Below, in pieces: positions 2,350 to 55,771 of a stretch of DNA of 64,000 nt. The notes under the pieces are model-generated. The model was not told where the DNA came from. It was given only the letters and a program-made list of their open reading frames with translations, and did no database searches. Origin of the DNA: Desulfobacteraceae bacterium. Its GTDB lineage: Bacteria > Desulfobacterota > Desulfobacteria > Desulfobacterales > Desulfosarcinaceae. The position numbers and the translations under genes are program-made. The DNA lies in contig JAAERL010000139.1 in NCBI GenBank assembly GCA_024230435.1, positions 6,339-70,338 of the forward strand. Reading direction: 5' to 3'. How positions within the stretch are numbered: the first letter of the stretch is position 1; each line of letters opens with the position of its first letter.

Positions 2350-2527
2350 TTAGGCGATTGGCGGAAAAGAATATACCATATTGGGCTTAGATTTTTTTTT
2401 CGTCTTCAAGGCCCGCCAAGTTTTGCTGATCAGTTTGCATACTTTACGTATTTGGGCTTTGGAATAACGCACAAGACGGGAAAAAAGACATACAAGATGG
2501 TATATTCTTTAACTGCAAATAGCCTTA
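2350..2527 (+). repeat. repeat family A, long copy A1 (MITE-like imperfect palindrome)
   Basis: TTAGGCGATTGGCGGAAAAGAATATACCA ... TGGTATATTCTTTAAC..AGCCTTAA termini, with internal paired arms TTTTTTCGTCTTC/ACAAGACGGGAAAAAA. Carries the 12-nt GTTTTGCTGATCA variant. Confidence 0.8.
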
Positions 2528-2658
2528 ACACTATTTACAGATATCAGGCTATTAATTCTTATGATAAGGATCTTGGAAGTTGCAAGCCACTGATTTTTGC
2601 ACTAACTGACGATCGGCAACGCCCATGATTCTAAGTCCAGGTTCAAAGGGGAGCATGT

Positions 2659-3459
2659 ATGCGATTCGGGGCTATGAATTTTCCGGTAATCTGTGTGATC
2701 GATGAGATAAATGCGATTGGGGAACTGGGTATGGACTATGTCGAGATAGCTATGGATCCGCCCCGGGCGCATTATACGCAGCTACAAGCCCAACAGTCCG
2801 CTATTCGTCGGGCATTGACATCTCATAATCTCGGTCTGGTATGTCATTTGCCAACGTTTGTCTTTACTGCGGATCTTGCTGACAGCATCAGGAAAGCGTC
2901 TGTCCAGGAGGTGATCGGCTCTCTTGAAACAGCCGATAGCCTTGGGGCTGAAAAAGTTGTTTTACATCCTGGCTGGATCGGCGGCTTGGCCATTCATGTA
3001 ATGGATCAGGCTCTGGAACTCGCCATGGATAGCCTGAACAAGATATCGCGCAGTGCCTCGGCGCTGGGTCTTACGGTTTGCGTGGAAAATATGTTCCCGC
3101 GGTTTGGGCCTTTTGTGGAAATCAGAACGCTTGAACCTGTTTTTTACGCTTTTCCTGAATTCAAATTTGTGCTGGATGTCGCCCATGCCCATATCGGGGA
3201 TAAATACGGCCGCCGTGCTCAGAATTTGATCGAGCGTTTCAGTTCCCGCCTGGCGCATGTACATATAAGCGATAATATGGGAATAAATGATGATCATCTG
3301 CCCGTAGGGGCGGGCACCGTTCGTTTCAAACCCATCATAAAAGCTCTTTGCCAAGCGGGATACAAGGATACCTTTACCCTTGAAATTTTTGTAGAAAAGC
3401 GCAAATTATTAATCAAAAGCCGTAATAAGCTGCTGGCGCTGATTGAAGAAAACAAATAA
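2659..3459 (+). CDS. sugar phosphate isomerase/epimerase (xylose-isomerase-like TIM barrel)
   Basis: 266-aa ORF. Motifs VVLHPGW, CVENM, LDVAHAHIG, HVHISDN and TLEIF are typical of the AP-endonuclease-2 / xylose isomerase-like TIM barrel family. Confidence 0.7.
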   Translation: MRFGAMNFPVICVIDEINAIGELGMDYVEIAMDPPRAHYTQLQAQQSAIRRALTSHNLGLVCHLPTFVFTADLADSIRKASVQEVIGSLETADSLGAEKVVLHPGWIGGLAIHVMDQALELAMDSLNKISRSASALGLTVCVENMFPRFGPFVEIRTLEPVFYAFPEFKFVLDVAHAHIGDKYGRRAQNLIERFSSRLAHVHISDNMGINDDHLPVGAGTVRFKPIIKALCQAGYKDTFTLEIFVEKRKLLIKSRNKLLALIEENK

Positions 3460-3496
3460 TTTAAAATTTCTAAACCGCTGCAGCGGCAAGCATATT

Positions 3497-4381
3497 TTAG
3501 ATAGTTTTTTTCACTATGTGATCCAGGGCCAGCTTGATCACCCGGGCGTTTTTTAAGATGCGGGTGTGGCCAAGCCCCTGTGTGGCAAACAAGCTTATGT
3601 GATCATTGATTATAACGGCTTGCCTGGTTTCCTCAAAGGCAATGGATGTATCGTTTTGGTCATGTATGACGAGTATTGGAAACCTCATAGTCTGAATAAT
3701 CTTAAACGGATCATGCCGGTTCAGGCTGTAACCATAGCGGTTTTCGTACTGGGCAATGAGGCGCTGGTAGATCTTTTCAGAAATATCATAACGCCTAAAC
3801 GCTGACAGCAGCATTTTTTCAAGTTTTAACGCCGGACAAATCAATACGGTCTTTATTTTTTGTTTCCGCCTGTATAGTGCATTGATTGCCGCCGAAGCCC
3901 CTAGTGAATGCCCGACAATTGCTTTTACCGCTGAACCGGTCTGTTTTAAGAGCGCTTCTGCGGCATCGGAGAATTCGAAATAGTTGGCTGTTTTACCATC
4001 AGAAAACCCATGAGCCGGGGCATCGAAGGCAATGGCGCGGCAACCACGGGATATGGTTTCGCGTATAAATCCGCCATATTGTAAAGCTCTGCCGTTCCAG
4101 CCGTGCACAAACAGGATGGCCGGCCCGGTTCCCCAGCTCCAGCAGCGTATTGTCTTTTTATTCACCCGGACACAAAAAGGGCGCCCTTTTGCCAATAAGT
4201 GTTTTTGATTCGAAGTCAGAGGATTCGATGAAGGTTTGAAAAACAACCGGTTAACCGCATAAGCGGTCAGGTGCGGTGCGGTGCGCCAGCTTAAGGTCAA
4301 AAGTAAAACGAAGAGTTTTATTTTAAAAATATCGTCACGAACGTTCGCACTTTTATATGTTAAGCTAACTCGATTAGTCAT
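3497..4381 (-). CDS. alpha/beta hydrolase
   Basis: 294-aa ORF with an oxyanion-region HGW(N)G (ILFVHGWNG) and the nucleophile elbow GHSLGAS. Confidence 0.75.
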   Translation of the reverse strand: MTNRVSLTYKSANVRDDIFKIKLFVLLLTLSWRTAPHLTAYAVNRLFFKPSSNPLTSNQKHLLAKGRPFCVRVNKKTIRCWSWGTGPAILFVHGWNGRALQYGGFIRETISRGCRAIAFDAPAHGFSDGKTANYFEFSDAAEALLKQTGSAVKAIVGHSLGASAAINALYRRKQKIKTVLICPALKLEKMLLSAFRRYDISEKIYQRLIAQYENRYGYSLNRHDPFKIIQTMRFPILVIHDQNDTSIAFEETRQAVIINDHISLFATQGLGHTRILKNARVIKLALDHIVKKTI

Positions 4382-4429
4382 TATTTTCCCCCTTAAGTGT
4401 TTAGGGTCTGTTTCCAGATGGAATTTAAT

Positions 4430-5011
4430 TTACCGGAAGCTATGTAATAATTTTTCAAATGCGGTTTGATAGCGCTTTTTGATGTCTGACTTATTAAGAA
4501 GTTTATAGTAAAGGTGAACACCCAACAGCAGGGAGTAAAATTCAAATGCGAATTGCTCACAGTCCGCATCTTTGCGGAACTCACCCGTGCCAACGGCTGA
4601 TTCGGCGATTTGCGCCAGACTCTCGATCCATAGCAATTGTTGTTTTAAAAGGAAATCTCTTACTTTTCCAGGCCGGTCTTTGTAGTCTGTACTGGCTGTT
4701 ACAAAGATGCATCCGCCGGTTAGGTTGCAGTCCCAGCTAATGTAATTATCCAATAATGCCATGATACGCGGTATACCGGCTTTGGTTCGAATTGCAGGGG
4801 TGATTACCTGCTGTGTAAACAGCATGCCGGCATGGTTTAAAATTTCAATTTGAAGGTTTTCCTTGGATTCAAAATGAGCAAACAAACCGCTTTTTGACAT
4901 GCTGGTTGCCTTTGCCAAAGCGCCAATACTTACATTTTCCAATCCGAGTTGACTTGCCATGTCAAGACCCGCATCCAATATAGTTAATTTTGTGTCTTGT
5001 CCTTTTGTCAT
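4430..5011 (-). CDS. TetR/AcrR family transcriptional regulator
   Basis: 193-aa ORF. The N-terminal HTH (ILDAGLDMASQLGLENVSIGALAKATSMSKSGLFAHFESKENL) is the canonical TetR_N pattern. Confidence 0.85.
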   Translation of the reverse strand: MTKGQDTKLTILDAGLDMASQLGLENVSIGALAKATSMSKSGLFAHFESKENLQIEILNHAGMLFTQQVITPAIRTKAGIPRIMALLDNYISWDCNLTGGCIFVTASTDYKDRPGKVRDFLLKQQLLWIESLAQIAESAVGTGEFRKDADCEQFAFEFYSLLLGVHLYYKLLNKSDIKKRYQTAFEKLLHSFR

Positions 5012-5022
5012 TTTGTAAAAAT

Positions 5023-5036
5023 AGAACGGCCGTTCT
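5023..5036. promoter_or_regulatory. candidate TetR operator (perfect 14-bp palindrome)
   Basis: AGAACGGCCGTTCT lies 12 nt upstream of the TetR start codon (5009-5011, minus strand), in the divergent region facing the 5416 hydrolase gene. Confidence 0.35.
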
Positions 5037-5211
5037 TTTCAGTCAAGACAATTTTTTACTTATTTTATAAATAGGTATGGATAAGTATATTCAGTGTTGA
5101 TATAAATCAGCGCTTGCCGCCAAGAAAACAATGCTTGATTTATTGCTTTTTCGATCCTTTATAGTTTTCGCCGCAACAGTGTTGCGTATTTTCCCGGATG
5201 CTAAAATTATT

Positions 5212-5250
5212 TTTTGCAGCCGATTTAATAATTCCCAAACAGGCTCTAAG
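5212..5250 (+). repeat. repeat family C right-end copy (solo or degenerate)
   Basis: TTTTGCAGCCGATTTAATAATTCCCAAACAGGCTCT (5212-5247) is identical over 36 nt to 57934-57969, just upstream of vgrG. Weaker similarity extends back to about 5165. Confidence 0.65.
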
Positions 5251-5415
5251 ATTATCCAGCAAGAATTTACGGTAATTTATAGCCGGGAGGAGTCACTATC
5301 CAATGACGAATTGGATATCATGGAGCAGTTAAAATTTCTGTTGCAAAAAAAACAATTATGCTGTTTTTTGGGCCTCGGGAGGCAAAGATGCCTAAGGCCC
5401 TTATAATCATATTTT

Positions 5416-6213
5416 ATGTCTTATTATAAAACACAAGACGGTTGCCGCCTTTATTATGAACTGCTTGGCGATGGTCCGGCAAAGCCTTTGATTACGTTTG
5501 TCAATGGTACGTTGCAAACAACTGTTTATTGGAAATTGGTGAGCAATGGCTTTACCGGCAGGTTTCGTATTTTATTGTATGATTGCCGGGGCCAGGGCGA
5601 AAGTGATATCGGGCAGTTGCCTTTATCTCTAAAACTGCACGCTTGTGATTTGAAAGATCTGCTTTTTGATTTAGACGTTAATGAAAGTATTGTGGTAGGT
5701 CTTAGCCACGGCGCCCGGACTGCATTGACTTTAGCGGATCAGGCTCCCGAACTGATTTCAAAAATGGTTCTGTGCAGTATTTCCACCAGTTCAAATTTCA
5801 GGGCTAAAATGATTGTACGTTCCTGGTATGAAATTCTTCAACGGCATAGACTTGATGCCATGGTTTGGGCTGCATTACCTTTTGTTTTCGGTACAAGATT
5901 TTTAAAAAAAAATGAAAAGCAGCTTGACCGGATCGTAAAAACCATTGTCCGGCGAAATAAAACAGATGCTCTGCGCCTTCACTTGGAGGCGATGCAAAAA
6001 TACACGCCACTGTCCTCGAATTTATACCCCATGCCGTTTCCGGTTCTGGTTCTTACCGGTGAAGATGACCCGCTGGTCACTGTACAAGGTGCACAACAGG
6101 TAGCAGATATCACCGGAGGGCGTCATGTGGAATTTAAAAATATGGGTCATTCTCTGGCTGCGGAGGATCCGGGGCAATTTGTTCAAATTGTGTACGAGTT
6201 CATAAATGGATAG
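5416..6213 (+). CDS. alpha/beta hydrolase
   Basis: 265-aa ORF. Nucleophile elbow GLSHGA, C-terminal MGHSLAAEDP histidine region, and a typical length for the fold. Confidence 0.75.
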   Translation: MSYYKTQDGCRLYYELLGDGPAKPLITFVNGTLQTTVYWKLVSNGFTGRFRILLYDCRGQGESDIGQLPLSLKLHACDLKDLLFDLDVNESIVVGLSHGARTALTLADQAPELISKMVLCSISTSSNFRAKMIVRSWYEILQRHRLDAMVWAALPFVFGTRFLKKNEKQLDRIVKTIVRRNKTDALRLHLEAMQKYTPLSSNLYPMPFPVLVLTGEDDPLVTVQGAQQVADITGGRHVEFKNMGHSLAAEDPGQFVQIVYEFING

Positions 6214-6238
6214 GAGTTTGGAAGTTAAAAAAAACACA

Positions 6239-7264
6239 TCACTCATACCAGCAAACATCTTCAGGGTTATATTCGAGCCAAATCCGGCGTCCCGGGTAGA
6301 ACTCGGTTGTGCAAACCTGTTCCGGTGTCAGCTCTACTGAAAACGTGTTTTTTCCAACAGTGACCCTGGCATTTATTCTACCGGTGGCTTTGTTCATATT
6401 CAGGCGCGTAAGGGTGCCTTTCAAAGAACACCTTTTTGAGTTGTCCGTATTTATCTTTGATTTTATTGTTAGGTTATTAGAAGATATGGCGGCTACTGCT
6501 TCACGGCTGTGCCCGGCAGCGGCGGCGGCAATAAAGTACTGGTTTTCAGTCATTTTTTTTGCCCAGCGGCCATCTTGCCGGAGTTTCCATGGGCCGAAAA
6601 TGAGCGTGGGTTGATTCGTACCCGCAATCCGGCCCCGGAAAAGATACACAACGCCGTTGCAGATATCCTGAAGCCACTGAATGTCATGGCTGCAAATCAC
6701 CAATGTTGTTTTCCATTCATGGTGGACTTTAAGTATGGCTTCTTTAATGAGTTGATTACTGGCTTCATCAACACTGGCCGTGGGCTCATCAAGCAGTAAC
6801 ACCTGGGGCCGCAGAACGAGCCTGGCGGCCAGAGCCGCGCGGCGGGCCTCTCCGCCGGATAATGCAAACCAGGGCCGTTGAGCAAAAGCGGCTGGCGGCA
6901 ATCCCACCCATTGCATTACGTTGTGGATTCTATCCGTGAGATGTTGCACATCCTTACGGGCGGCTAAGCCATAAGCGATGTTGCGGTAAACACTGCGTTT
7001 GAGAAGATGTGAGGCCTGGGGTAAAAGAGCAACCTGCCTGCGTAACGTTGTGTAACGTCCATTGGCCGTGTTGCCGCAAAACCGGATGCTGCCCTGCCAG
7101 GGCCTTTCGACAAATCCAAGCAAGCGCAGCATCGTGCTTTTGCCGCTGCCGTTGGGTCCGGCCAGGCCGATAATCGAATGCAAGCGGGTCTGCCATTGGC
7201 CGATACGCAATACCGTCCGGTTATTGTAACGATGATCAATATTTTTCAGTTCGTATAATTGCAT
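6239..7264 (-). CDS. ABC transporter ATP-binding protein with C-terminal TOBE-like domain (tungstate/molybdate type)
   Basis: Walker A GPNGSGKST, signature LSGGEARR and Walker B LLLDEPTASVD. The start is moved to MQLYELKN (ATG 7262-7264), 4 nt after the permease stop, rather than the overlapping 7300 start. Confidence 0.85.
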   Translation of the reverse strand: MQLYELKNIDHRYNNRTVLRIGQWQTRLHSIIGLAGPNGSGKSTMLRLLGFVERPWQGSIRFCGNTANGRYTTLRRQVALLPQASHLLKRSVYRNIAYGLAARKDVQHLTDRIHNVMQWVGLPPAAFAQRPWFALSGGEARRAALAARLVLRPQVLLLDEPTASVDEASNQLIKEAILKVHHEWKTTLVICSHDIQWLQDICNGVVYLFRGRIAGTNQPTLIFGPWKLRQDGRWAKKMTENQYFIAAAAAGHSREAVAAISSNNLTIKSKINTDNSKRCSLKGTLTRLNMNKATGRINARVTVGKNTFSVELTPEQVCTTEFYPGRRIWLEYNPEDVCWYE

Positions 7265-7268
7265 GGTG

Positions 7269-7955: not shown

Positions 7956-7958
7956 TTG

Positions 7959-8900: not shown

Positions 8901-9173
8901 GGAAACGTAGTCCCTTTTAATTTCTGTTAGAATTGCAGCTATATCTTATCTAAAGCTATACTTTATCTGTTTATGTTATTATTTTCAAAAAAGTTTTTTA
9001 AGGTACCAAAAAAAACAAAATGTGACAATATCGTATTGCCGCTTTCAATTGACAAAACAAGTCCGGACTTGATATGTTTCTGCATTGTCCATAGGCGGTA
9101 GTTCAAGTTGAATGACAAAATAGATTGCCATTTACGGTATCTATCTTCTCGTTGAGTTGTAAAGGGGGGTGCT

Positions 9174-12726: not shown

Positions 12727-12756
12727 TTGATGTCTCGCCTTTTTTGTTGGTATTAT
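12727..12756 (+). promoter_or_regulatory. candidate sigma70-type promoter upstream of ugd
   Basis: TTGATG, an 18-nt spacer, then TATTAT, about 60 nt upstream of the ugd ATG. Pattern match only. Confidence 0.25.
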
Positions 12757-12817
12757 CTCTAAGTTATTGATGCTACATTAAAATTAAAAAATAGCTGATA
12801 GTAAATAGGAGACACGA

Positions 12818-14993: not shown

Positions 14994-15040
14994 TTCAGGT
15001 TGATTTAGCGGCTTTAGCGCCGTGAACCATCAGTTGGACC

Positions 15041-15095
15041 GGCAGAATCGCCAGCATAATCAAACGCTAATTGCTATTATGCTGGCGAATCCGCC
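15041..15095. repeat. long intergenic stem-loop (20-nt arms, 18/20 paired, 15-nt loop)
   Basis: GGCAGAATCGCCAGCATAAT (15041-15060) pairs with ATTATGCTGGCGAATCCGCC (15076-15095). No T-tract follows. Confidence 0.6.
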
Positions 15096-15217
15096 GATCA
15101 ACCCGCGCCTGTTTGGCTCTTTGCAGTCCGGTGCGATTATTGATTGAGGTTTCTGGGCCATGCAGTCTCTACCGTGATTATCTCCAGCTTTGGTATCATA
15201 AGGATAAGTAAAGAATA

Positions 15218-16172: not shown

Positions 16173-17170
16173 ATGAAAGAACGAAATGGGACAGTTTTGG
16201 TAATCGGCGGCACCGGCTATATTGGCAGCCATATGGTTAAGCTGCTAACCGAAAGCGGCCGTAAGCTGTTTGTGCTTGATGACCTTTCAACCGGCCATCG
16301 CAGTTTGTTAAACAGTTGTAAACATATTGTGGGAAAATTAGGCGATAGAGAGCTGCTAAAACACATTTTTAATGAAAATGAAATTATAGCGGTAATGCAT
16401 TTTGCTGCCTATTCGCTGGTGGGAGAGTCTGTTTCATCCCCATTGAAATACTATATAAACAATATCACTGAAACGATAGCTCTTCTTGAGGAGATGATAA
16501 ACCATGGGCCAATGAAATTTATCTTTTCCTCAACTGCGGCAGTCTATGGCGAGCCGAAACAAACACCAATCGTAGAAAATCATCCCTGTCGGCCAACCAA
16601 TCCTTATGGTTCGACGAAATTATGTATCGAAAAGCTGCTGAGACAATGCGATCAAGCGTATGGTTTGAAATTTATTTGCCTTCGTTATTCAATGCAGCCG
16701 GAGCAGATCCGTCTGCAACGATAGGAGAGATGCACTCGCCTGAAACTCATCTGATTCCATTGGTTCTAAAGAGCGCTATGTCCAATACGCCGATACAAAT
16801 TTTTGGGACCGACTACCCGACCCAAGACGGGACCTGTATACGTGATATGTACATGTCAATGAATTTAGCTCAGGCGCGTTTACTTGCCTTGGATGAGCTT
16901 TTGAATGATGGCCCGAGTCGTATTTACAATCTTGGCAATAATAGCGGCTATTCAGTACGCCAAGTTATTGAAGCCGCAAGATTGGTGACGGGCAAACGCA
17001 TTTACATAGTAGAAAAGTGCCGGCGGCCAGGCGACCCGGCGATTTTGGTTGTCAATGCAGACAAAATCAAACGGGAATTGAACTGGCGCCCTGTTTATAA
17101 GGACTTGGAAACTATTATCGAAACAGCATGGAAGTGGGAATTGTTTCGCAAATCGTCAAACCTCATCTGA
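16173..17170 (+). pseudogene. galE: UDP-glucose 4-epimerase, frameshifted
   Basis: Two overlapping ORFs (16173-16724 in frame 0, 16622-17170 in frame 2) together give a full GalE: VIGGTGYIGSH, the YGSTK catalytic YxxxK, and [19 protein letters not shown]. The expected [11 protein letters not shown] reads LRYS-MQPEQ because one T is missing in CGTTATTC at about 16687-16689. Confidence 0.8.
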
Positions 17171-17470: not shown

Positions 17471-17636
17471 TTAAGGCGATTGGCGGAAAAGAATATACCA
17501 GATTGAGCAGGATTTTTTTTCGTCTTTAAGGCATGCCAAAGTTTGCATACTTTACGTATTCGAACCTATGGCATAACACACTATACGGGAAAAAAGGCAT
17601 GTAAGAAAATATATTATTTAACACAAATCGCCTAAG
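17471..17636 (+). repeat. repeat family A, long copy A2
   Basis: TTAAGGCGATTGGCGGAAAAGAATATACCAGATTGAGCAGGATTTTTTTTCGTCTT...AAATCGCCTAAG. Intergenic, between galE and wecB. Confidence 0.85.
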
Positions 17637-18963: not shown

Positions 18964-19130
18964 TTTTGAAGCTGTAAAATTTCACTCTTGTTCATCTTGA
19001 TTTATATGCCTTTTGAATTCGTTTTTCTCTGTTGCTACGATGGGCAAAGACGGTGAGTATGCAATGATTTTTGTTTTTTGAAAACAAATCCAAAACCGGC
19101 GCAATAACGGTATATTTACAGCTTCAAAGG
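18964..19130 (+). repeat. repeat family B, copy B1 (second MITE-like imperfect palindrome)
   Basis: TTGAAGCTGTAAAATTTCAC...GAATTCGTTTTT...GAGTATGC...GAAAACAAATCCAAAACCGGCGCAATAACGGTATATTTACAGCTTCAAAGG. It starts 5 nt after the wecB stop and is homologous to 35023-35189 and 36858-37027. Confidence 0.75.
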
Positions 19131-19218
19131 CTCTTGGTGCGCCGATGGGCAGTGTTTGGCGGCACAAGCCCGTATTAGTTCAGTTTGTACCAGAGAGTAA
19201 TTTTAAACGAGGTAATTG

Positions 19219-21900: not shown

Positions 21901-21937
21901 AATGTACGCAGACAATTAGTATATCAATTAATATATC

Positions 21938-22103
21938 TTTTAGTATGAACCCATCTTGTATGTCTTTTTTCCCGTCTTGTGCGTTATGCCAAAGATGCGA
22001 ATACGTTAAGTATGCAAACTGATCAGCAAAACTTTGGCGCGCCTTGAATACGAAAAAAAATCGAAGCTCAATCTGGTATATTCTTTTCCGTCAATCGCCT
22101 AAG
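21938..22103 (-). repeat. repeat family A, long copy A3 (inverted, one terminus degenerate)
   Basis: This is the reverse complement of the A consensus: ...CCCGTCTTGTGCGTTATGCCAAAGATGCGAATACGTTAAGTATGCAAACTGATCAGCAAAACTTTGGCGCGCCTTGAATACGAAAAAAAA...TGGTATATTCTTTTCCGTCAATCGCCTAAG. Confidence 0.8.
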
Positions 22104-33445: not shown

Positions 33446-33544
33446 TGTCTATCCATAAATGGCCGATTTGCCTGATATTTTTGTCAGATTGAAAAATTTT
33501 GTCCACTCAATATCGCCCTGGGCATATCAATTACCCATCGTAAA

Positions 33545-33568
33545 TTTTTTCCCGCCAATCGCCTAAGG
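33545..33568 (-). repeat. solo terminus of repeat family A
   Basis: TTTTTTCCCGCCAATCGCCTAAGG is the reverse complement of the A left terminus. It lies about 37 nt upstream of the aminotransferase ATG. Confidence 0.55.
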
Positions 33569-33605: not shown

Positions 33606-34793
33606 ATGTCCGAAAAAAAACGGCTATTTCTTTCACCTCCCCATATGGGCGGTGAAGAACTCAACTATGTTAAGCAAGCCTTTGAAAGTAACTACATTGC
33701 GCCTTTGGGCCCCATGGTGGATGCTTTTGAAGAGGCGATAAAGGAAAAAACCGGATTTACCAATGCCGTAGCCCTTGCCAGTGGAACCGCGGGCTTGCAT
33801 CTGGCTTTGCGGAATTTGGGAGTTGGTCCGGCTGATGAAGTCTTTGCTTCAACCCTTACGTTCATTGGCAGCGTGTCACCAATTGTCTTTCAACGCGCAA
33901 GGCCGGTTTTTATCGACTCTGATCTGCAAACGTGGACCCTTGACCCTGAACTGCTGGCTCAGGAGTTGCATTGTTGTCAAAAGCGCGGACGGTTGCCAAA
34001 GGCTGTAATACCAACGGATTTGTATGGCCAGTGTGCTGATATTGATAAAATCCTGGCTATATGCGACAGCTACGGCGTTGCTGTCATATCAGACTCGGCG
34101 GAATCTCTGGGTGCGCTCTATCAGGGCAGACATGCAGGCCTGGGAGCCAAAGCCGCCGTGTTTTCATTTAACGGGAACAAGATTATCACAACTTCCGGCG
34201 GCGGAATGCTGGTATCCGATGAAGCCCGATTCATAGAAAAAGCAAGATTCTTATCCCAGCAGGCCAGGGATAATGCCCCGCACTACCAGCATTCGCAAAT
34301 CGGTTATAATTATCGTATGAGCAATATTGCGGCTGCGATCGGCCTGGGTCAGCTTGAATGCCTGGACCAGCGCATTGCCCGTAAACGGGAAATTTTCAGG
34401 TACTATAAAAGTGCGTTAGACGATTTGCCGGGTATTTCTTTCATGCCCGAAGCCCGCTATGGGCGCAGCAACTATTGGTTAACGGTAATGCTCGTTAATC
34501 CGGCTAAATTTGGCGCTGATACGCATACCATCCGTTTAGCTCTCGAAGAACATAATATCGAATCACGTCCTGTCTGGAAACCCATGCATCTTCAACCGGT
34601 TTTTTCAATCATTGAAGATGAGACTAAACACCATCATACTACTTTGGAAAAATGCCCTGCAAGGGCGGTTGGCGGACATGTAGCCGAGGCGCTCTTTAAA
34701 AACGGGCTATGCCTGCCGTCCGGTACGGCTTTGAGTGAAAGACAATTAGAAAGCATCGTCATGCGGATTCGCAGACTGCATGGCGTTAATTAA
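33606..34793 (+). CDS. DegT/DnrJ/EryC1/StrS family PLP-dependent sugar aminotransferase
   Basis: YVKQAFESNYIAPLGP, ALASGTAGLHLAL, FSFNGNKIITTSGGGML (PLP lysine) and YNYRMSNIAAAIGLGQL are present. 395 aa. Confidence 0.9.
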   Translation: MSEKKRLFLSPPHMGGEELNYVKQAFESNYIAPLGPMVDAFEEAIKEKTGFTNAVALASGTAGLHLALRNLGVGPADEVFASTLTFIGSVSPIVFQRARPVFIDSDLQTWTLDPELLAQELHCCQKRGRLPKAVIPTDLYGQCADIDKILAICDSYGVAVISDSAESLGALYQGRHAGLGAKAAVFSFNGNKIITTSGGGMLVSDEARFIEKARFLSQQARDNAPHYQHSQIGYNYRMSNIAAAIGLGQLECLDQRIARKREIFRYYKSALDDLPGISFMPEARYGRSNYWLTVMLVNPAKFGADTHTIRLALEEHNIESRPVWKPMHLQPVFSIIEDETKHHHTTLEKCPARAVGGHVAEALFKNGLCLPSGTALSERQLESIVMRIRRLHGVN

Positions 34794-34955
34794 GGCGATT
34801 GGCGGAAAAGAATATACCAGATTGAGCAGGATTTTTTTTCGTATTCAAGGCGTGCCAAAGTTTGCATACTTAACGTATTCGCATCTTTGGCATAACGCAG
34901 AAGACGGGAAAAAAGACATACAAGATGGTATATTCTTTAACAGAAATCGCCTAAG
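34790..34955 (+). repeat. repeat family A, long copy A4
   Basis: TTAAGGCGATTGGCGGAAAAGAATATACCAGATTGAGCAGG...GATGGTATATTCTTTAACAGAAATCGCCTAAG. Its first bases contain the aminotransferase TAA stop (34791-34793). Confidence 0.85.
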
Positions 34956-35013
34956 GCGATTGGCGGAAAAAAAGACATACAAGATGGTTATTATTTGCCG
35001 CAAACCGCCTAAG
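34951..35013 (+). repeat. repeat family A, short form (internally deleted), tandem to A4
   Basis: CTAAGGCGATTGGCGGAAAAAAAGACATACAAGATGGTTATTATTTGCCGCAAACCGCCTAAG shares the CTAAG junction with A4. It has the same deletion architecture as 55710-55771. Confidence 0.7.
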
Positions 35014-36857: not shown

Positions 36858-37027
36858 CCTGGAACCTGGCAAATATTCCCACTGTTGCTTGCCTTGATCC
36901 ATATGACCTTTAGAATCCGTTTTCGCCTGTTACGCCAATTGATACAGCCAATGAGTATACACTCATCTTCGTTTATTGAAAACGAATCCGAATCCGGCGC
37001 AATAACGGTAAAATTGCAGCTTCCAGG
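36858..37027 (+). repeat. repeat family B, copy B3
   Basis: CCTGGAACCTGGCAAATATTCCCACTGTTGCTTGCCTTGATCCATATGACC...GAGTATAC...GAAAACGAATCCGAATCCGGCGCAATAACGGTAAAATTGCAGCTTCCAGG. It starts 18 nt after the exosortase stop. Confidence 0.75.
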
Positions 37028-40962: not shown

Positions 40963-41129
40963 TAAGGAGATTGGCGGAAAAGAATATACCAGATTGGCCT
41001 CGATTTTTTTTCGTCTTCAAGGCGTGCCAAAGTTTGCATACTTTACGTATTCGCACCTTTGGCATAACTTAAGAAGACGGGAAAAAAGACATGCAAGATG
41101 GTATATTCTTTAACTGTAAATTGCTTTAG
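40963..41129 (+). repeat. repeat family A, long copy A5
   Basis: TAAGGAGATTGGCGGAAAAGAATATACCAGATTGGCCTCGATTTTTTTTCGTCTTCAAGGCGTGCCAAAGTTTGCATACTTTACGTATTCGCACCTTTGGCATAAC...GATGGTATATTCTTTAACTGTAAATTGCTTTAG. Confidence 0.85.
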
Positions 41130-44336: not shown

Positions 44337-44359
44337 AGCGTGAAAAGGGGTTCAAGGTC

Positions 44360-47595: not shown

Positions 47596-47606
47596 ATAGG
47601 TGTCAC

Positions 47607-49187: not shown

Positions 49188-49251
49188 ATTAGGCAATTAG
49201 AAATTACTGACTTTGGAGCGAACAAAGTGACAGTCAAATGCCAAACAGGCT

Positions 49252-49429
49252 CTAAGGCGATTGGCGGAAAAAGCATAGCATCTTAACAGATACCATATTG
49301 GGCTTAGATTTTTTTTCGTCTTCAAGCCATGCCAAAGTTTGCTGATCAGTTTGCATGTTTAAAGTATTCGCAGCATTGGCATAACACAAAAGACGGGAAA
49401 AAAGACATGCTTAACACAAATCGCCTAAG
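49252..49429 (+). repeat. repeat family A, long copy A6 (variant arms), abutting a family C terminus
   Basis: The sequence reads CCAAACAGGCTCTAAGGCGATTGGCGGAAAAAGC...ATACCATATTGGGCTTAGATTTTTTTTCGTCTTCAAGCCATGCCAAAGTTTGCTGATCAGTTTGCAT...AAATCGCCTAAG, where the first 11 nt (49241-49251, CCAAACAGGCT) are the abutting family C terminus. Confidence 0.8.
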
Positions 49430-49530
49430 TTCGCGCCGGTCCATAAATGTCCAATTGCGCCGATGGATACAAGTTGATTGCAAATTAGGTCATTGTGGCA
49501 GCGGTGGCAGGGTAAAAGGAACATATACTC

Positions 49531-50322: not shown

Positions 50323-50480
50323 TTGAAAATAGAGTTTTTCCCGCACGGTTATTTATTTGATTCCCATTTCTTAGATTTTGGCATCTTCCACGCGCCATAG
50401 ATCATAATGGCCAAAGTTATAGCCAAACAAAAAATTTACAAATAAAAATTAGAAAAATATAAGGCGATTTATTGTAAAAA

Positions 50481-50514
50481 GGTCATGCGCCTCAGGCGCA
50501 TGGCCTTTTTTTTT
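50481..50514. terminator. bidirectional rho-independent terminator
   Basis: GGTCATGCGCC-TCA-GGCGCATGGCC hairpin (11-bp stem with one G-U pair) followed by T9 on the plus strand and preceded by A5. It sits between convergent genes ending at 50322 (+) and 50577 (-). Confidence 0.7.
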
Positions 50515-50576
50515 CAATTTAGGCGATTGGCCGTAAAGCCCGGAAGCTTTAGCTTTGGCAGTACGTCAACCGAGCG

Positions 50577-52940
50577 TCAAGCGTTACAGGAGTTAATCAC
50601 ATTAGTGAGTTTTTCCGACAAGACAACCAGAGAAAATGGTTTTTGAAGGAAACCGTAGGCTCCGGCTTTCAGGAGTTTTTTGACGGGCTCATCGATTGCG
50701 TATCCGCTGCATAATATAATTTTCAGATTGGGGCGTATGGCAATCAGTTTATGAAACAGCTTGTCACCGTCAATGTCCGGCAACCGCATATCCAGCAAGA
50801 CCGCGTCAATAACGCCTTGATAGGATTCCAATAAATCAGTGGCCTGCTGACCGGTGGCCGCTCCCAACGGTTTGTAGTTCAAACGCGATAACCGTTGATG
50901 GATCGCTTTCATTAATTGGGTTTCATCTTCCACTACTAAAATTGTGGCGCCTTGTCCATTTGAAGTTTCTGCGGGCGGATCAATTTTGGGGCTACGGGCC
51001 GGCTGAACCTTAGGCAGATAGATGCGAACGTTTGTTCCCTTGGCTGGTTTTGATTCAATGTTGAGCCAGCCGCCGTGGCAGTCGATGATGCCATAAACGG
51101 CGCTGAGACCCAGGCCGCGCCCGATAAATTTTGTCGTGAAAAAGGGATCAAAAACTTTTTTGAGGGTGTTTTCGTCCATACCGCAGCCCTCATCGGAAAC
51201 TTCAAGCAATACGTATTGTCCCGCGGTCAGTTTTGGATGGTCCGTTAATTGGTTTGCGGAAAAATTTTCATTGCGAGCACAAACCCGGATACGGCCCGGA
51301 CCCTCTGTAGCCTCGGCCGCATTTTTCACCAATGCCAGCAAAACCATCTGCAATTGTGTTGTATCCGCGTTTACAAATCCCGTATTCGTTGACAAGTCCG
51401 TTTCAATGCGGATATTGCCGGGAACATTTTCGCGGATCAGGCTCAATGCGCTGTCCACAAATTCCGCCAGGTTTATATGATGTGCTTCGTATTGCCCTCC
51501 CTTTGCATAGGCGAGCAATTGTTGGGTCAAATTGGCCATTCGTTTCACCTGCTCGAAGATAGCCGAAATATTTTCGGATGATTTTCCAATTTTTTTTATA
51601 TCCATATGCAACAGTTCGACATAACCTACCAATCCGGCCAGGGCATTATTGAATTGATGCGCCACTCCGCCGGCCAGTGTGGCGATGGAATCCAATCTGC
51701 GGGCTTCCATGATTTGGGCCTGCAGTTGTTTATAATCGGTAATGTCGAAAATGATTCCCTGCAGCGCGGAGCTTTCACCGTTGATGCAGCAAATGTTTTG
51801 AGCATGCTCGCGCACCCAGCGCAATTGCCCCTTAATATCCTGAATACGATATTCAATGGAAAGAAATTTTTCTTCTTTTGCGTTGATGTCCGAGCGCATG
51901 GTATCAAAAATGTGTCTGTCATTGGGGTAGATAAGTTCTTGCCATGCCGGCTCGGCTTTTTGAAGGTCATCGATGCTGTAGCCGGTAATCGATTCCACGG
52001 CGCCGTGAAAAAAAATGGGGGTGCCATCGGTCTTTTGCTGATAAGCGATCCCTTTCAGGCTTTGAATAAAGGATCGGAAGCGGGCTTCACTGTTCTTTAA
52101 AGCTACTTCGGCAAGTTTGCGTTCCGTGATATCACTTAGAATAATGAGTGTTTGGGGTTGGCCCTTATTGGGGTCGAAAATCGATTTGGCCTCTATCTGG
52201 GCCTCAAATTTGGAACCATCTGTCCGGTGCATGGTTATTTCGCAACTAATGGAATGGTTTTCCCGGATTGCGTTAACGCAGCATGCATAGGAGTCAATAT
52301 TTTCCGGAGCGACAAAATTTATAAAGGGTTGCTGATCCAACTCACCCGGTTTTTTTTGCAACAGTTCGGCTGCCCTGTGATTCGCCTCAATAATTAATCC
52401 CGCACTGTCAACGGTTACGTAGCTCACCGGGGCATTATGATACAGATCCTGGTAACGGTGGCGTGACGATTCCAATGCCTTTTGGGTTATGCGCAATTCC
52501 TGGTTTTGGTCTTCAAGGCTATCCTGGCGATTTTGAAGCTGCTCCATCAACCGGTCGTTTTCATTTACCAGTCGCCCGTGTTCAAGGGCCATGGCGGTAA
52601 CCCGCAAAAGATCGGAGCGGCTTTGAGGTTTGGTCAAAAAATCATAAGCACCTAAATCTTTAAGTGCCAACACCGCCATATCTAAAGTGGCGTGACCGGT
52701 TAGAATGATAACAGGAACATTGGGGGTAATTGATTTAATGGTCTTTAAAACATCCATGCCGTCCATGCCCGGCATGCGGATATCCGTGATTACACAGTCG
52801 GCATGGTGTTTTTTGAACAGTTCGACAGCCTCATCGCCTCTTGAAGCGCAACTGACCTTATAGCCGGCTTTGCTGAGGATTTTTTGTAACACCTCTAAAA
52901 CATCGGATTCATCGTCAGCAACGATAATATGTTGCGCCAT
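50577..52940 (-). CDS. hybrid sensor histidine kinase/response regulator (REC-coiled coil-PAS-PAS-HisKA-HATPase-REC)
   Basis: N-terminal REC (IIVADDE...ITDIRMPGMDG), two PAS-like regions, an H-box GGVAHQFNNAL, the G-boxes DEGCGM and GRGLGLS, and a C-terminal REC (ILVVEDE...LLDMRLPDIDG). Confidence 0.9.
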   Translation of the reverse strand: MAQHIIVADDESDVLEVLQKILSKAGYKVSCASRGDEAVELFKKHHADCVITDIRMPGMDGMDVLKTIKSITPNVPVIILTGHATLDMAVLALKDLGAYDFLTKPQSRSDLLRVTAMALEHGRLVNENDRLMEQLQNRQDSLEDQNQELRITQKALESSRHRYQDLYHNAPVSYVTVDSAGLIIEANHRAAELLQKKPGELDQQPFINFVAPENIDSYACCVNAIRENHSISCEITMHRTDGSKFEAQIEAKSIFDPNKGQPQTLIILSDITERKLAEVALKNSEARFRSFIQSLKGIAYQQKTDGTPIFFHGAVESITGYSIDDLQKAEPAWQELIYPNDRHIFDTMRSDINAKEEKFLSIEYRIQDIKGQLRWVREHAQNICCINGESSALQGIIFDITDYKQLQAQIMEARRLDSIATLAGGVAHQFNNALAGLVGYVELLHMDIKKIGKSSENISAIFEQVKRMANLTQQLLAYAKGGQYEAHHINLAEFVDSALSLIRENVPGNIRIETDLSTNTGFVNADTTQLQMVLLALVKNAAEATEGPGRIRVCARNENFSANQLTDHPKLTAGQYVLLEVSDEGCGMDENTLKKVFDPFFTTKFIGRGLGLSAVYGIIDCHGGWLNIESKPAKGTNVRIYLPKVQPARSPKIDPPAETSNGQGATILVVEDETQLMKAIHQRLSRLNYKPLGAATGQQATDLLESYQGVIDAVLLDMRLPDIDGDKLFHKLIAIRPNLKIILCSGYAIDEPVKKLLKAGAYGFLQKPFSLVVLSEKLTNVINSCNA

Positions 52941-53159
52941 ACCGCCTCTTTGGATTGCCCCTTATTAAAAACTGCGGGAAAGAATCCAGGACAAGAATGC
53001 CGAATTCAAAAAGCGGGTCTGATTGAGGGACCATATTGGTTTATGTTATTGCAGTTGCCTGATTAACAATAGATATTAATCAGACTGGCGGAAGAATTCA
53101 AGTCTTGATCAGATTTATTGCTTTTTTGCATTAATTTTTCTTTTTTTTAATACCCTGCT

Positions 53160-53238
53160 TTAAGGCGATTTATGTTAAATAATATACCATATTGGGTATA
53201 GCATATTGGGATTAGATTTTTTTGCGCCAATCGCCTAA
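53160..53238. repeat. repeat family A, short hairpin form (termini only)
   Basis: TTAAGGCGATTTATGTTAAATAATATACCATATTGGG...TTAGATTTTTTTGCGCCAATCGCCTAA. Confidence 0.65.
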
Positions 53239-53307
53239 CAAGCAAATACTTGATGCTTTTTGCCGCCAGCAAAAGGCGCTGGTCTAAATTCGGTATGATT
53301 TTTTTCA

Positions 53308-53399
53308 GTGTCCAGATTTAAGTGTCCAGATTTAAGTGTCCAGATTTAAGTGTCCAGATTTAAGTGTCCAGATTTAAGTGTCAGGATTTAAGTGTCAGG
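53308..53399. repeat. 14-bp tandem repeat, about 6.5 units
   Basis: GTGTCCAGATTTAA occurs as 5 perfect units (53308-53377), then the variant GTGTCAGGATTTAA and a partial GTGTCAGG. Non-coding, in a divergent intergenic region. Confidence 0.95.
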
Positions 53400-53664
53400 C
53401 AAAACCGGTCACAATGCAAAAAATAGGGCACAGTACAGATAGAAAAATAGAATTTTTTTTGATTTTGCAGTATTTGTCATAAAACTGCGTCTGTTTCCGA
53501 AGCCGTGGCCGAGTCTTTCGAAATCCGGGTTGAGTATAATGTTTGTCAGTGTTAATCGAGTTGTAAAACTCAAAAAAATTAATTTTTCTATTCCAGCTAT
53601 TAACGCCTATTGCATAAAAAAACTTGAGTATTGCTGTGTGTTTTGTTTTATAAAGTTTTTAGGA

Positions 53665-53752
53665 TTAGGCGATTGGCGAAAAAAAATGTATCATATTGTA
53701 CGGAAAAAAAGACAAGCAAGATGGTATTCTCTTTGATTGCAAATCGTTTAAG
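53665..53752 (+). repeat. repeat family A, short form
   Basis: TTAGGCGATTGGCGAAAAAAAATGTATCATATTGTACGGAAAAAAAGACAAGCAAGATGGTATTCTCTTTGATTGCAAATCGTTTAAG. Confidence 0.65.
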
Positions 53753-53952
53753 AGTTTTGGAGGCTGCAAATCACCCCTTCCCACATGTTTTTGAATTCGT
53801 TTTTTCTGATGCATTAACAGGCTCTTAGCTCAAACGTATGTCACACGGCATGTAAAACGCATTTCTGTGGTACCTATTTTTCGAGCGTTTTGATTTAGGC
53901 CGGATTTTCCAATTCCTGAATAATCACTAAATACTTTAAATAGAAAAAAACT

Positions 53953-55647
53953 ATGACAGATAATATTAAAAATCAGACATTGGTAAATTTTATCGGCAAA
54001 AAGGCATATCTGGTCAAATATCCCGTAGAGTCATTTTCAAAGCCGATTTCAATTTTTGCCGAAAAGACCTACATTGGTAACGATCCTGACAATGCGGTTT
54101 ATATTCCTAGCACGGGCGTATCCGAAAAACATGCGGTTATTACCAAAATTGAAGAGCATTTTTATCTGACCGATAACGCATCCCGGCTTGGAACGTATTT
54201 GAATGGGAACAAGGTTCAGGAAAAGCGTCTGACGCATCATGACAGACTTACCATTGGCGGCCAAAGTTATTTGTTTTTACTGGAATTGGGCCACTCAGAT
54301 GATTCGGCGCTGGATACCCTTTTTACGGCTACGGATACAATTTCCCTCAGTGAAGAAGAAATCGATTTTTCCGAACTTTTGGCTCAAAACGCCGACAGCG
54401 CCGCACGCGGGTTATTCAGGCAAACCGATACGGATCATTATAGCCAAACGTCTAGTTCGGACAGGGCATATCAACGATTGTCCCTTTTGTATCAACTCAG
54501 TGAAAAATTGCGTTCCACAAGGGATCTTGACGATATTTTAGAAAAGGGCCTCGATCTGATTTTTCAAGCGATTCCAGCAGCGTCATGTTCGCTGATTATG
54601 CTTAAATCCCCCATTGAAGGCTCGCTGGAAGTTCGGGCATTTAAAACCCTTAACAGCCGTCATGGCGCCAGCACCGGCGAAGTGCTCAACATCAGCCGCA
54701 CCTTGCTCGATTGGGTTCTTACGGAAAAAATTGCCCTGGTCAGCCAGGATGTGACCGAAGACATGCGCCTGGAAGAATCTGAGTCCATACGAATCCAAAA
54801 TGTTAATTCAATTATTTGCGTTCCCATGATTCGCCAAGAAAAGGTCGTTGGCGTGCTGTATGTGGATTCGAACACCGTGATCAATCCTCTGGTGCAAGAA
54901 GATGCTATTTTTGCCGCTGCCGTAGCCAATGAAATGGCTCTTTGTATTGAAAATACACGGCTCCAGCAACAGGCCCTTCGAAATGAACGCATGGCCGCCA
55001 TCGGCATGACAGTTGCGAATTTAGCACACAATATCAGAAATTTAATCGCCCTGAACCAAAGCGCGGTTGATCTTATGGGGATGCATTTAAGCAAAATTGA
55101 CAATCCAAAAATTAAAAAGAACTGGCAATGGATCAAACAAAGCTTTGACGGCATTAACCAATTATCATTTGGAATGCTCGAATATGCCAAGGCAGATAAG
55201 ATTGTACTTGAACTGACCGATATCAACCAGATGATTAACAGCGCCCGCGGCTTAATTGTTCGCGATGGCATTGAGTTTGATTTTCAGTTAGCGCCTGAAA
55301 ACCCGAAATGGATGATAGACTCGACTCAGTGTCACCGGGCGCTGTTGAATCTGGTGGTTAACGCCATACATGCGGTAAAAGACTGCGAAAAAGCACAAAT
55401 CAGAATATTTACGAAATTAGATGAAGGCAACCGTTTGATTATCGGAGTTACGGATAATGGGTGCGGTATTATGCCGGAAAAACAGGAAAAGGTTTTTCAA
55501 CTGTTTTTTACCACCAAAGGCACGGAAGGTACGGGGCTGGGGCTGCCGATGGTCCAAAAGCTTATCGAGCGAATGGGCGGCGAACTCACATTTAATTCAA
55601 AGGCGGGGATAGGCTCTGTTTTCAAAATGGTTTTTTCAAAAAACTGA
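53953..55647 (+). CDS. FHA domain - GAF domain - histidine kinase
   Basis: FHA pattern (TYIGNDPDNAVYIPSTGVSEKHAVI...FYLTDNASRLGTYLNGNKV...LTHHDRLTIGGQSYLF), a central GAF-like region, an H-box NLAHNIRNL, and an ATPase domain with DNGCGI and GTGLGLPMV. Confidence 0.85.
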   Translation: MTDNIKNQTLVNFIGKKAYLVKYPVESFSKPISIFAEKTYIGNDPDNAVYIPSTGVSEKHAVITKIEEHFYLTDNASRLGTYLNGNKVQEKRLTHHDRLTIGGQSYLFLLELGHSDDSALDTLFTATDTISLSEEEIDFSELLAQNADSAARGLFRQTDTDHYSQTSSSDRAYQRLSLLYQLSEKLRSTRDLDDILEKGLDLIFQAIPAASCSLIMLKSPIEGSLEVRAFKTLNSRHGASTGEVLNISRTLLDWVLTEKIALVSQDVTEDMRLEESESIRIQNVNSIICVPMIRQEKVVGVLYVDSNTVINPLVQEDAIFAAAVANEMALCIENTRLQQQALRNERMAAIGMTVANLAHNIRNLIALNQSAVDLMGMHLSKIDNPKIKKNWQWIKQSFDGINQLSFGMLEYAKADKIVLELTDINQMINSARGLIVRDGIEFDFQLAPENPKWMIDSTQCHRALLNLVVNAIHAVKDCEKAQIRIFTKLDEGNRLIIGVTDNGCGIMPEKQEKVFQLFFTTKGTEGTGLGLPMVQKLIERMGGELTFNSKAGIGSVFKMVFSKN

Positions 55648-55709
55648 TAGCGGTCTCAAATCCATAACACTATATTTGCGGCTTAACGGAACCCTGAAAG
55701 AGCGCAAGA

Positions 55710-55771
55710 TAAGGCGATTGGCGGAAAAAAGACAAACAAGATAGTATATTCTCTAACACAAATCGCCAAAG
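55710..55771 (+). repeat. repeat family A, short form
   Basis: TAAGGCGATTGGCGGAAAAAAGACAAACAAGATAGTATATTCTCTAACACAAATCGCCAAAG has the same deletion architecture as 34951-35013. Confidence 0.7.

Follow-up and report, generated by a model that had tools for sequence, protein, structure and literature searches.

Family A, the repeat found between genes throughout the 64,000-nt Desulfobacteraceae stretch analysed here (the window), is a new family of MITE, i.e. a familiar kind of element and not a dedicated gene switch. Most probably (we put it at about 0.8) it is a non-autonomous DNA transposon that inserts at TWA, is moved in trans by an IS5/PIF-Harbinger-type DDE enzyme and keeps its hairpin for the sake of propagation.

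Family A is represented in the window by seven full-length copies, four with internal deletions and several fragments, where none would be expected by chance; the covariance model finds at least 13 copies, and the local density is ~1 copy per 5 kb. The terminal 19-mer, with up to 2 mismatches allowed, occurs 12 times (0.00 expected). The canonical unit, with the ends GGCGATT…AATCGCC, is exactly 157 bp long; the length ranges from 157 to 172 bp in the window and is 157 bp in most copies elsewhere. The refined bounds given below leave out the 3-bp flanks. All six long copies of the preliminary description were recovered at their places by nhmmer (E 1e-52 to 1e-59) in agreement with the covariance model, and its four short forms are real as well. 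Its statement that the repeat occupies almost every intergenic gap was too strong, as family A is present in ~12 of the ~24 gaps that reach 130 nt or more (counted from the ORF list).

The 172-bp copy at 2353..2524 (+) carries a 12-nt internal insert, is flanked by a TTA duplication (2350-2352 and 2525-2527) and lies in the divergent promoter region 5' of a sugar-phosphate isomerase/epimerase-like gene. The copy at 17475..17632 (+, 158 bp, TAA on either side) sits between split galE and wecB and has a decayed stem (-37.8 kcal/mol). At 21935..22099 (-) the right terminus is gone and the orientation is opposite to that of the flanking genes. The best preserved copy, 34794..34951 (+, 158 bp, 160.5 bits with the covariance model), uses the stop codon of an aminotransferase gene as its left TAA (34791-34793), and its right TAA occupies 34952-34954. 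It is abutted by an internally deleted copy of 55 bp at 34955..35009 (+, covariance model); the TAA between them is common to both, and the right flank of the shorter copy is again TAA. The copy 5' of prsT (40966..41125, +) has TAA on the left and a degenerate right terminus. The arms of 49256..49426 (+, TAA on either side), which has chain-length determinant and tyrosine-kinase genes as neighbours, one on each side, are rearranged by a 14-nt insertion in the left arm and a deletion in the right arm. The 12-nt indel already described among the copies is seen in those starting at 2353, 21935 and 49256.

The remaining internally deleted copies are located at 53164..53235 (-, 72 bp, TTA on either side; 19-mer scan and covariance model), 53668..53748 (+, 81 bp, degenerate termini; nhmmer and covariance model) and 55713..55767 (+, 55 bp; covariance model), the last having the same deletion junction as 34955..35009. 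Solo left-terminus fragments were found at 33538..33568 (-; nhmmer and terminal 19-mer scan) and, weakly, at 50516..50538 (+; nhmmer and 19-mer scan with 2 mismatches). The fragment proposed earlier at 33545-33568 therefore stands, and that at 50460-50530 shrinks to the latter interval. A third one, 1207-1275, does belong to the family but is no fragment: it is part of a complete copy (157 bp) from a divergent subfamily at 1163..1319 (-; covariance model 87 bits, E 1.4e-21) with the termini GGGTCGCGGAAAAA…TTTTTTCCGGGGCCC, TTA flanks at either end and a predicted fold of -82 kcal/mol.

A second type of hairpin repeat, designated family B, is found at 36858..37027 (-; covariance model E 0.004) and 19001..19132 (-; covariance model). 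It has the internal core ATTGCGCCGGATT…TTCGTTTTCAA / GCATAC / AACAG.GAAAACG in common with family A and differs in the termini; it is probably a distant relative. The core is kept and the ends are changed both in family B and in the divergent copy 1163-1319, and within family A the internal core is conserved at least as well as the termini, which is unusual if the ends alone matter.

The 3-bp direct duplication TAA or TTA around family A is concordant at 33 and discordant at 4 unique sites (p = 1e-6). Since flanks belonging to the inverted repeat would be discordant, TWA represents a duplicated target. The insertion is demonstrated directly by a comparison of filled and empty sites: an unrelated ~105-nt repeat is intact at loci L102 and L052 and interrupted at L115, where the filled site reads GCT-TAA-[157 bp]-TAA-GTTGG. 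The base before T-W-A tends mildly to be a pyrimidine and the one following it a purine. Family A also possesses the terminal inverted repeats that, like a target-site duplication, characterize MITEs, its arms matching over ~25 nt at each end. The conserved ends are slightly asymmetric (left GGCGATTGGCGGAAAAG, right GGCGATTTCTGTCAAAG); the conservation of the left terminus is inflated by ascertainment, because this terminus served as the search pattern in both collection scans.

The high local density might suggest that family A is no transposon but debris of local duplication or recombination, or else a host repeat of the REP/BIME type. This is extremely improbable and is already contradicted by the copies in other phyla, by the insertion caught inside another repeat and by the flanks and TWA duplication that each copy has of its own. 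REP/BIME are 20-40-nt GC-rich stem-loops, RAYT-associated and without duplication (PMC3184786). Family A, a 157-bp unit with a target-site duplication, resembles REP units neither in length nor in sequence, and this identity was rejected.

Outside the window, full-length copies were found in Desulfosarcina cetonica, a Desulfatitalea MAG, a Methylococcaceae MAG, Lamprobacter and uncultured Gammaproteobacteria; the hosts include Chromatiaceae and other Gammaproteobacteria. Family A is also present on 85 metagenome contigs, two samples having it on at least 60 contigs, and several genomes contain deletion derivatives of 42-120 nt. The copies are dispersed over unrelated sites beside housekeeping genes, as expected of a MITE: the neighbours include the bamA-skp spacer, a P-type ATPase, xerD and proB, and the flanking ORFs span 200 different Pfam families. 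The earlier idea of a dispersed, non-coding, MITE-type palindrome is thus borne out, and the copies are not confined to the locus in which they were first noticed. In five of five syntenic XrtD exosortase loci of relatives family A is absent; the gene junctions there overlap or measure 26-116 nt, compared with 343-478 nt for the window gaps holding copies.

The proposed terminal inverted repeats and internal pairings indeed form one long hairpin spanning the element (-63.8 kcal/mol, z = -9.6). Across subfamilies 93% of cells are paired, with double (compensatory) changes in 28 of the 55 pairs; none of 500 shuffles reached the observed covariation, and slid controls were paired at 42-49%. The covariation extends over the entire length and not the ends alone, and the asymmetric internal loops are kept in all subfamilies. 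Of 34 substitutions in young copies, 22 hit paired positions (70% expected), and 15 of 20 disrupt a pair. Decay after a recent insertion is neutral, which suggests that the constraint acts on propagation and not on a host function at each locus.

The preliminary description had assigned to both ends an outward extended -10-like motif, TGGTATATT, possibly acting as a portable promoter. This motif is not conserved: in other subfamilies it is replaced by CTTGTATTC, CATGCATTC, GGACCATTC or GGTAACTTT, and since each replacement is matched by a change in the opposite arm, it is the pairing that is conserved and not a -10 box. One such motif does face the next plus-strand gene, but this holds trivially for any palindrome. 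A consensus promoter scan did not call the TGGTATATT site and found sites at the level of shuffles only, and the conserved TTGACA of the right end is accompanied by a -10-like hexamer in the flank, correctly spaced, in only 1 of 46 sites. On these grounds a sigma-70 portable promoter was rejected. More broadly, family A could regulate the exosortase/EPS cluster in cis, either through an outward promoter at TGGTATATT or as an RNA-processing or terminator hairpin maintained for expression. The fit of TGGTATATT to an extended -10 would agree with this, as would the stable hairpin that an operon transcript would carry and the position of most window copies between co-directional genes, whose orientation they share in 7 cases vs 2. 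However, outside the window the orientation is the same in ~8 cases and opposite in 6, the contexts elsewhere are unrelated to EPS, and the syntenic EPS loci lack the element. Together with the lack of motif conservation, the background-level promoter scan, the hybrid-promoter test and the neutral decay of young copies, this makes a regulatory role very unlikely.

With its 157-172 bp (42-120 bp in the deletion forms) family A stays below the upper limit of ~300 bp usual for MITEs, has no coding capacity and is too short for a transposase. As stated before, the window contains no transposase, and a search revealed no integrase there either. No transposase cluster was found across 117 family A loci, no pair of termini enclosed a transposase, and beyond solo termini lie ordinary genes. 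The search proposed earlier for a transposase with matching ends gave no counterpart: no autonomous IS with family A termini was found in the window, the 117 loci or the plasmid and viral collections. The plasmid collection had no family A match at all, nor had 5,426 E. coli genomes (20,395 records, blastn). The element does not match a catalogued RNA family: Rfam gave no hit at or above the gathering threshold over the window, only chance-level miRNA/sRNA hits (E at least 1.3) in a further search and no match for one metagenome copy. Looking up the terminal 12- and 13-mers in full texts led to unrelated papers only, and the literature searched contains no description matching family A.

The PIF/Harbinger-IS5 (PHIS) superfamily prefers TAA/TTA targets. 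Canonical Harbinger elements, relatives of the prokaryotic IS5 family, generate TSDs of 3 bp (PMC12730594). Family A shows this 3-bp TWA duplication and resembles Tourist-type MITEs further in being short, non-coding, bounded by terminal inverted repeats and high in copy number. It differs from them in that the whole element covaries as a hairpin, and in that neither a transposase nor an autonomous relative could be found, so that a single feature, the TWA duplication, points to this class. In the proposed mechanism a DDE transposase of IS5/PIF-Harbinger type would recognise the conserved, slightly asymmetric ends in trans. The insertion at T-W-A with duplication of 3 bp is itself shown by the data. 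So is the spread of the element, in Desulfobacterota as well as Gammaproteobacteria, to chromosomal sites that have nothing in common, with internally deleted and half copies left behind. In the Desulfobacteraceae MAG it has colonised intergenic junctions of an XrtD-exosortase polysaccharide operon, junctions that are tight and element-free in relatives. The full-length hairpin may be needed for propagation and not for any host function at the single sites, as suggested by compensatory change between subfamilies and neutral decay of single insertions; effects on flanking genes (hairpins in polycistronic mRNA, chance promoters) would be a by-product.

In 36 of 37 copies folding of the top strand is favoured by ~16 kcal/mol over that of the bottom strand, and paired columns contain 48 G·T vs 12 A·C (27 vs 12 without the two conserved wobble columns), a modest bias (about p = 0.02) whose cells are not independent. 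Neither observation is predicted by a purely double-strand DDE mechanism. The copies have no orientation bias relative to host genes, and host transcription therefore does not explain the asymmetry. Function of integron attC sites and IS200/IS605 ends needs one strand folded as an imperfect hairpin with conserved unpaired bases; attC sites are placed 3' of each cassette in an array adjoining intI. Family A resembles them in its better folding top strand and its conserved asymmetric loops, whereas it is flanked by TWA duplications and lies outside cassette arrays. An identity with attC was rejected in view of these duplications, the ordinary operons occupied (bamA-skp, EPS cluster) and the window free of integrase. 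It is conceivable that the folded single strand itself is the substrate, i.e. that an HUH/Y1 or tyrosine-recombinase-type enzyme or an RNA/ssDNA intermediate acts on the top-strand hairpin, recognised through its internal loops and T·G wobbles as in attC or IS200/IS605 ends, with the termini secondary. The strand asymmetry, the wobble excess, the covariation over the entire length, the loops conserved in all subfamilies, the core outlasting the termini in copy 1163-1319 and family B and the lack of orientation bias agree with this. It is nevertheless unlikely, as the clean 3-bp duplication is the signature of staggered double-strand DDE cleavage, the wobble bias is modest and no candidate enzyme is seen near any copy. 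To our knowledge IS200/IS605, IS91 and integron cassettes make no target duplication. A doubtful, combined possibility is that the top-strand hairpin, with its asymmetric loops and two invariant T·G wobbles, is the true enzyme substrate of a hairpin-dependent mobile element with a 3-bp TSD, its duplex termini being secondary. We know of no bacterial transposon family described with this combination; if true, it would account both for a core more durable than the termini (copy 1163-1319, family B) and for the exact length of 157 bp kept across phyla.

Among known MITEs, ERIC is conserved across genera, intergenic and often co-transcribed, duplicates TA, varies in length through internal deletions and insertions and has, as far as we know, no parent IS. 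It is a non-coding imperfect palindrome of ~127 bp classed as a MITE (PMC3184786). Family A is likewise a non-coding imperfect palindrome between genes with length variants. It differs in size (157 vs 127 bp), in its 3-bp TWA instead of TA duplication, in its hosts (Desulfobacterota and non-enteric Gammaproteobacteria) and in having no sequence similarity. Identity with ERIC was rejected, the blastn search of the 20,395 E. coli records, in which the ERIC consensus is present, being blank. Correia / NEMIS elements are hairpin-forming MITEs of ~100-155 bp between the genes of Neisseria and are not known outside this genus; they duplicate TA and are reported to carry outward promoters and RNase III sites. 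They were the model behind the earlier promoter idea and share with family A the intergenic, hairpin-forming nature, but the promoter-like motif of the latter is not conserved. Chunjie of Geobacter uraniireducens has 178-235 bp, 21-bp TIRs and 9-bp direct repeats (PMC3184786). Like family A, it is a deltaproteobacterial MITE whose RNA is predicted to fold very stably (2008); family A differs by its 157 bp and 3-bp TWA duplication.

A name and a covariance model are now available for a repeat strewn through the genomes of sulfate reducers of environmental importance and of several Gammaproteobacteria. As many copies lie at contig ends, it visibly fragments the assemblies of two metagenome samples. 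The long, odd spacers in the exosortase/EPS operon are transposon scars and not regulatory architecture, which should temper regulatory readings of such clusters. Across phyla the length is strict and compensatory evolution spans the full element, yet each insertion decays neutrally, which makes family A a clean natural case in which one can ask what the movement of a MITE needs beyond its terminal repeats.

All six long family A copies claimed in the preliminary description were recovered by direct-repeat scan, alignment and profile search of the window (E 1e-52 to 1e-59), and the 19-nt terminal motif of the family occurs there 12 times with at most two mismatches against 0.00 expected from shuffles. 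The list was refined with the covariance model built later in the analysis, which places full-length copies at 2353-2524, 17475-17632, 21935-22099 (minus strand), 34794-34951, 40966-41125 and 49256-49426. A sequence formerly regarded as a fragment is real but complete: according to the same model it is a seventh full-length copy of 157 bp from a divergent subfamily (1163-1319, minus strand). Internally deleted copies are found at 34955-35009, 53164-53235 (minus strand), 53668-53748 and 55713-55767, and fragments of a terminus at 33538-33568 and 50516-50538. The repeats had been said to fill almost every intergenic gap; counted from the ORF list, about half of the larger gaps carry one.

With genes for UDP-glucose dehydrogenase, WecB, a flippase, glycosyltransferases and a LegC-type aminotransferase, as well as for the exosortase XrtD, PrsT, Poly_export, a chain-length determinant and a tyrosine kinase, the window is a polysaccharide/exosortase locus. 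After the EPS genes come two histidine kinases, a sucrose-phosphorylase-like gene and VgrG. No transposase is among the genes identified, as had been noted from the sequence. The XrtD has an identical public entry named "Desulfobacteraceae bacterium" (a MAG), and its next relative is 56% identical. Immediately upstream of the copy at 17475, galE (UDP-glucose 4-epimerase) is split into overlapping ORFs corresponding to its N- and C-terminal halves (16173-16724 and 16622-17170); this is either a pseudogene created by a frameshift or an error of the MAG assembly. The VgrG (57991-63504) is very long (1837 aa) and its C-terminal extension matches a T6SS effector of the BTH_I2691 family; this segment is GC-richer (about 50-54%) and has a reversed GC skew. 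The histidine-kinase genes at 50577-52940 (minus strand) and 53953-55647 are each bracketed by inward-facing family A termini, and the bracketed spans (50522-53235 and 53668-55767) resemble a composite unit, most likely through coincidence between separate short copies. The divergent region between these two genes, flanked by two short copies, also holds a tandem array (53303-53396) of 6.7 units of the 14-nt sequence TTTAAGTGTCCAGA with 96% match.

The earlier structural description is correct. The best copy forms one long hairpin (-63.8 kcal/mol, z = -9.6 against shuffles). Pairing was analysed on an alignment of 13 diverse copies with 55 base pairs. In this alignment 93% of the cells are paired and 28 of the 55 pairs have changes on both sides, values reached by none of 500 column shuffles; when the partners are slid by 1-3 columns, pairing falls to 42-49%. 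Four blocks are conserved in sequence, namely the two termini, an internal block and the apical GCATA. The two termini differ consistently from each other (left GGCGATTGGCGGAAAAG; right, read inward, GGCGATTTCTGTCAAAG), and two T·G wobbles in the internal block TTCGTCTTCAAGGCG / AACGCAGAAGACGGG are nearly invariant. These conserved asymmetries show that the subfamilies go back to a single asymmetric ancestor and did not arise time and again as perfect fold-backs. Folding of the top strand is on average 16 kcal/mol more favourable than that of the bottom one, with 36 of 37 distinct copies showing this preference, and the paired columns hold 48 G·T against 12 A·C (27 against 12 without the two wobble columns).

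The window contains a second hairpin repeat, family B, in two minus-strand copies (19001-19132 and 36858-37027) that are 75% identical to each other. It shares with family A the core ATTGCGCCGGATT…TTCGTTTTCAA, GCATAC and AACAG.GAAAACG; its termini are unlike those of family A, there are no clear TWA (TAA or TTA) flanks, and it scores weakly with the family A model (E 0.004 and 0.03). Such a pattern is suggestive of a superfamily in which the core is conserved and the ends vary. Three near-perfect intergenic hairpins with sequences unrelated to family A lie at 15033-15102 (70 nt, -41 kcal/mol), 57540-57616 (77 nt, -38 kcal/mol) and 57816-57961 (146 nt, -52 kcal/mol). The source genome seems to be rich in palindromic intergenic elements.

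Outside the window the family A unit is strikingly uniform. Among the unique intact copies there, 27 are exactly 157 bp long, from GGCGATT to AATCGCC, and the 3 bp next to either end read TAA or TTA. Flanks belonging to the palindrome would read TAA at the left and TTA at the right. The flanks observed match directly (33 concordant against 4 discordant pairs, binomial p = 1e-6) and therefore represent a target-site duplication. It is followed by a purine in 26 of the 33 sites and preceded by a pyrimidine in 20. Filled and empty sites can be compared in an unrelated repeat of ~105 nt (…CCCGGCTTAAGTTGG…), which is intact in two loci outside the window (L102, 1086-1190; L052, 1131-1232) and is split by family A in a third (L115, 1250-1333 region) as …GCT-TAA-[157-bp element]-TAA-GTTGG…. 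In locus L060 (5-24) the nesting of the two is reversed. This repeat is itself MITE-like, has the termini CCAACTTAAGCCGGGACAA…TTGTCCCGGCTTAAGTTGG and belongs to the same metagenome organism. In the window, the left TAA of the copy at 34794 doubles as the aminotransferase stop codon. Five syntenic XrtD loci of relatives carry no copy; there the aminotransferase and xrtD overlap or are 26 nt apart, against 478 nt in the window, and the Wzz-kinase junction measures 60-116 nt, against 343 nt. The loci L090/L002 and L047/L018 gave no usable orthologous empty site, their DNA being too diverged.

Deletion derivatives of family A span 42-120 nt, and the 55-nt form has an identical junction in the window and in Desulfatitalea. 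There are also half copies ending at or near the hairpin apex; four internal left-arm halves (L112, ~1149-1250; L043, 2727-2830; L056, 1362-1460; L086, 2578-2690) stop at the apex or within ~15 nt of it. Such ends would be expected if cleavage or deletion in vivo affected the centre of the palindrome.

Copies confined to this one locus would have pointed to local duplication; the family is instead dispersed. A scan of species-representative genomes by the terminal motif gave at least 32 matches, and among the matches listed are true members of the family from Desulfosarcina cetonica (JCM 12296, NZ_BBCC01), a Desulfatitalea MAG (JABDRH01, at least 6 contigs), a Methylococcaceae MAG, Lamprobacter modestohalophilus, an uncultured gammaproteobacterium of 68% GC and another Pseudomonadota MAG. 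Metagenomes yielded 85 contigs, mostly from two samples, many with the copy at a contig end, as is expected of a high-copy repeat. Viral contigs, plasmids and E. coli genomes gave no match. The neighbouring genes in these sources have nothing to do with polysaccharide synthesis (examples are the bamA-skp spacer, a P-type ATPase, xerD and proB), and the 138 ORFs flanking family A contain 200 different Pfam families. Family A has inserted with TWA duplication and has dispersed across distant hosts. Its GC content roughly follows that of the host, 0.37-0.40 for the copies in the 43% GC window and 0.52-0.57 for those compared in contigs of 58-68% GC (L009, L087, L035), which suggests that it has resided in each lineage for long and was not transferred very recently.

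Elements of the IS5 / PIF-Harbinger type prefer TAA/TTA targets. A DDE transposase of this type, acting in trans, may move family A. Canonical Harbinger elements, which are relatives of IS5, generate duplications of 3 bp (PMC12730594). ORF clustering over 117 family A loci gave no transposase cluster, and a Pfam scan of the 138 flanking ORFs no recurring transposase family. Termini paired at a distance of 0.3-4 kb belong to separate short copies and bracket only two histidine-kinase genes; the ORFs behind solo termini, inspected by eye, are DnaJ-like, Nuo-like, toxin-antitoxin and similar, with no transposase. A parent IS was found neither in plasmids nor in viral contigs. The strand asymmetry and the full-length covariation fit poorly with recognition of duplex ends only, and both the copy at 1163-1319 and family B keep the core while changing the termini. 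The main rival reading, that the folded single strand and not just the duplex ends is the substrate of mobilisation, draws on these features; we consider it unlikely.

A regulatory interpretation is not supported. The portable outward promoter proposed at TGGTATATT does not hold up: the motif is not conserved, a consensus promoter scan did not call the site and gave counts at shuffle level, and the stretch GAATATACC / GGTATATTC is among the most strongly covarying helices, being replaced in other subfamilies by GAATGCATG/CATGCATTC, GAATGGTCC/GGACCATTC and CAAAGTTACC/GGTAACTTTG. The subfamily found in the window may contain a promoter by chance. In most subfamilies an outward-facing TTGACA is present at the right end; a hybrid promoter was rejected, as TANNNT follows at 16-18 nt spacing in only 1 of 46 unique right flanks. 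A sigma-54 promoter or enhancer for PrsK/PrsR was dismissed because TGGCAT/TTGCAT, examined by eye, lack -24/-12 spacing and family A is not EPS-specific.

Family A works like the hairpin MITEs of ERIC, Correia or Chunjie type (PMC3184786). Identity with ERIC is ruled out by the absence of matches in E. coli and with Chunjie of Geobacter by its description (9-bp direct repeats, 178-235 bp length); REP and attC sites were likewise ruled out. The Rfam search suggested in the preliminary description gave no match at the gathering threshold or in relaxed mode, so family A is no catalogued ncRNA family. Literature searches with the terminal 12- and 13-mers, and others on MITEs of Desulfobacteraceae or Desulfosarcinaceae, returned nothing relevant. 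Family A is a real and well-defined MITE family that, judged by the Rfam, text and E. coli searches, is apparently undescribed. It stands out by its host range, its strict length and its structural covariation, yet its kind is already known.

The level at which the hairpin is selected can be seen from its decay. Among 20 full-length copies of the dominant metagenome subfamily, 22 of 34 distinct substitutions fall in paired positions (70% expected, p = 0.57) and 15 of 20 break a pair, so inserted copies decay neutrally. The window copies have decayed too, with folds from -61 down to -31 kcal/mol. Copies in the window share the orientation of the flanking genes by 7 to 2. Elsewhere the ratio is about 8 to 6 by GC3-weighted ORF calls, without clear bias; simple calls were unreliable in GC-rich contigs. 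Taken together, the neutral decay, the weakened folds and the orientation counts show that the constraint on the hairpin acts in the propagating lineage of family A and not through a function for the host at individual loci.
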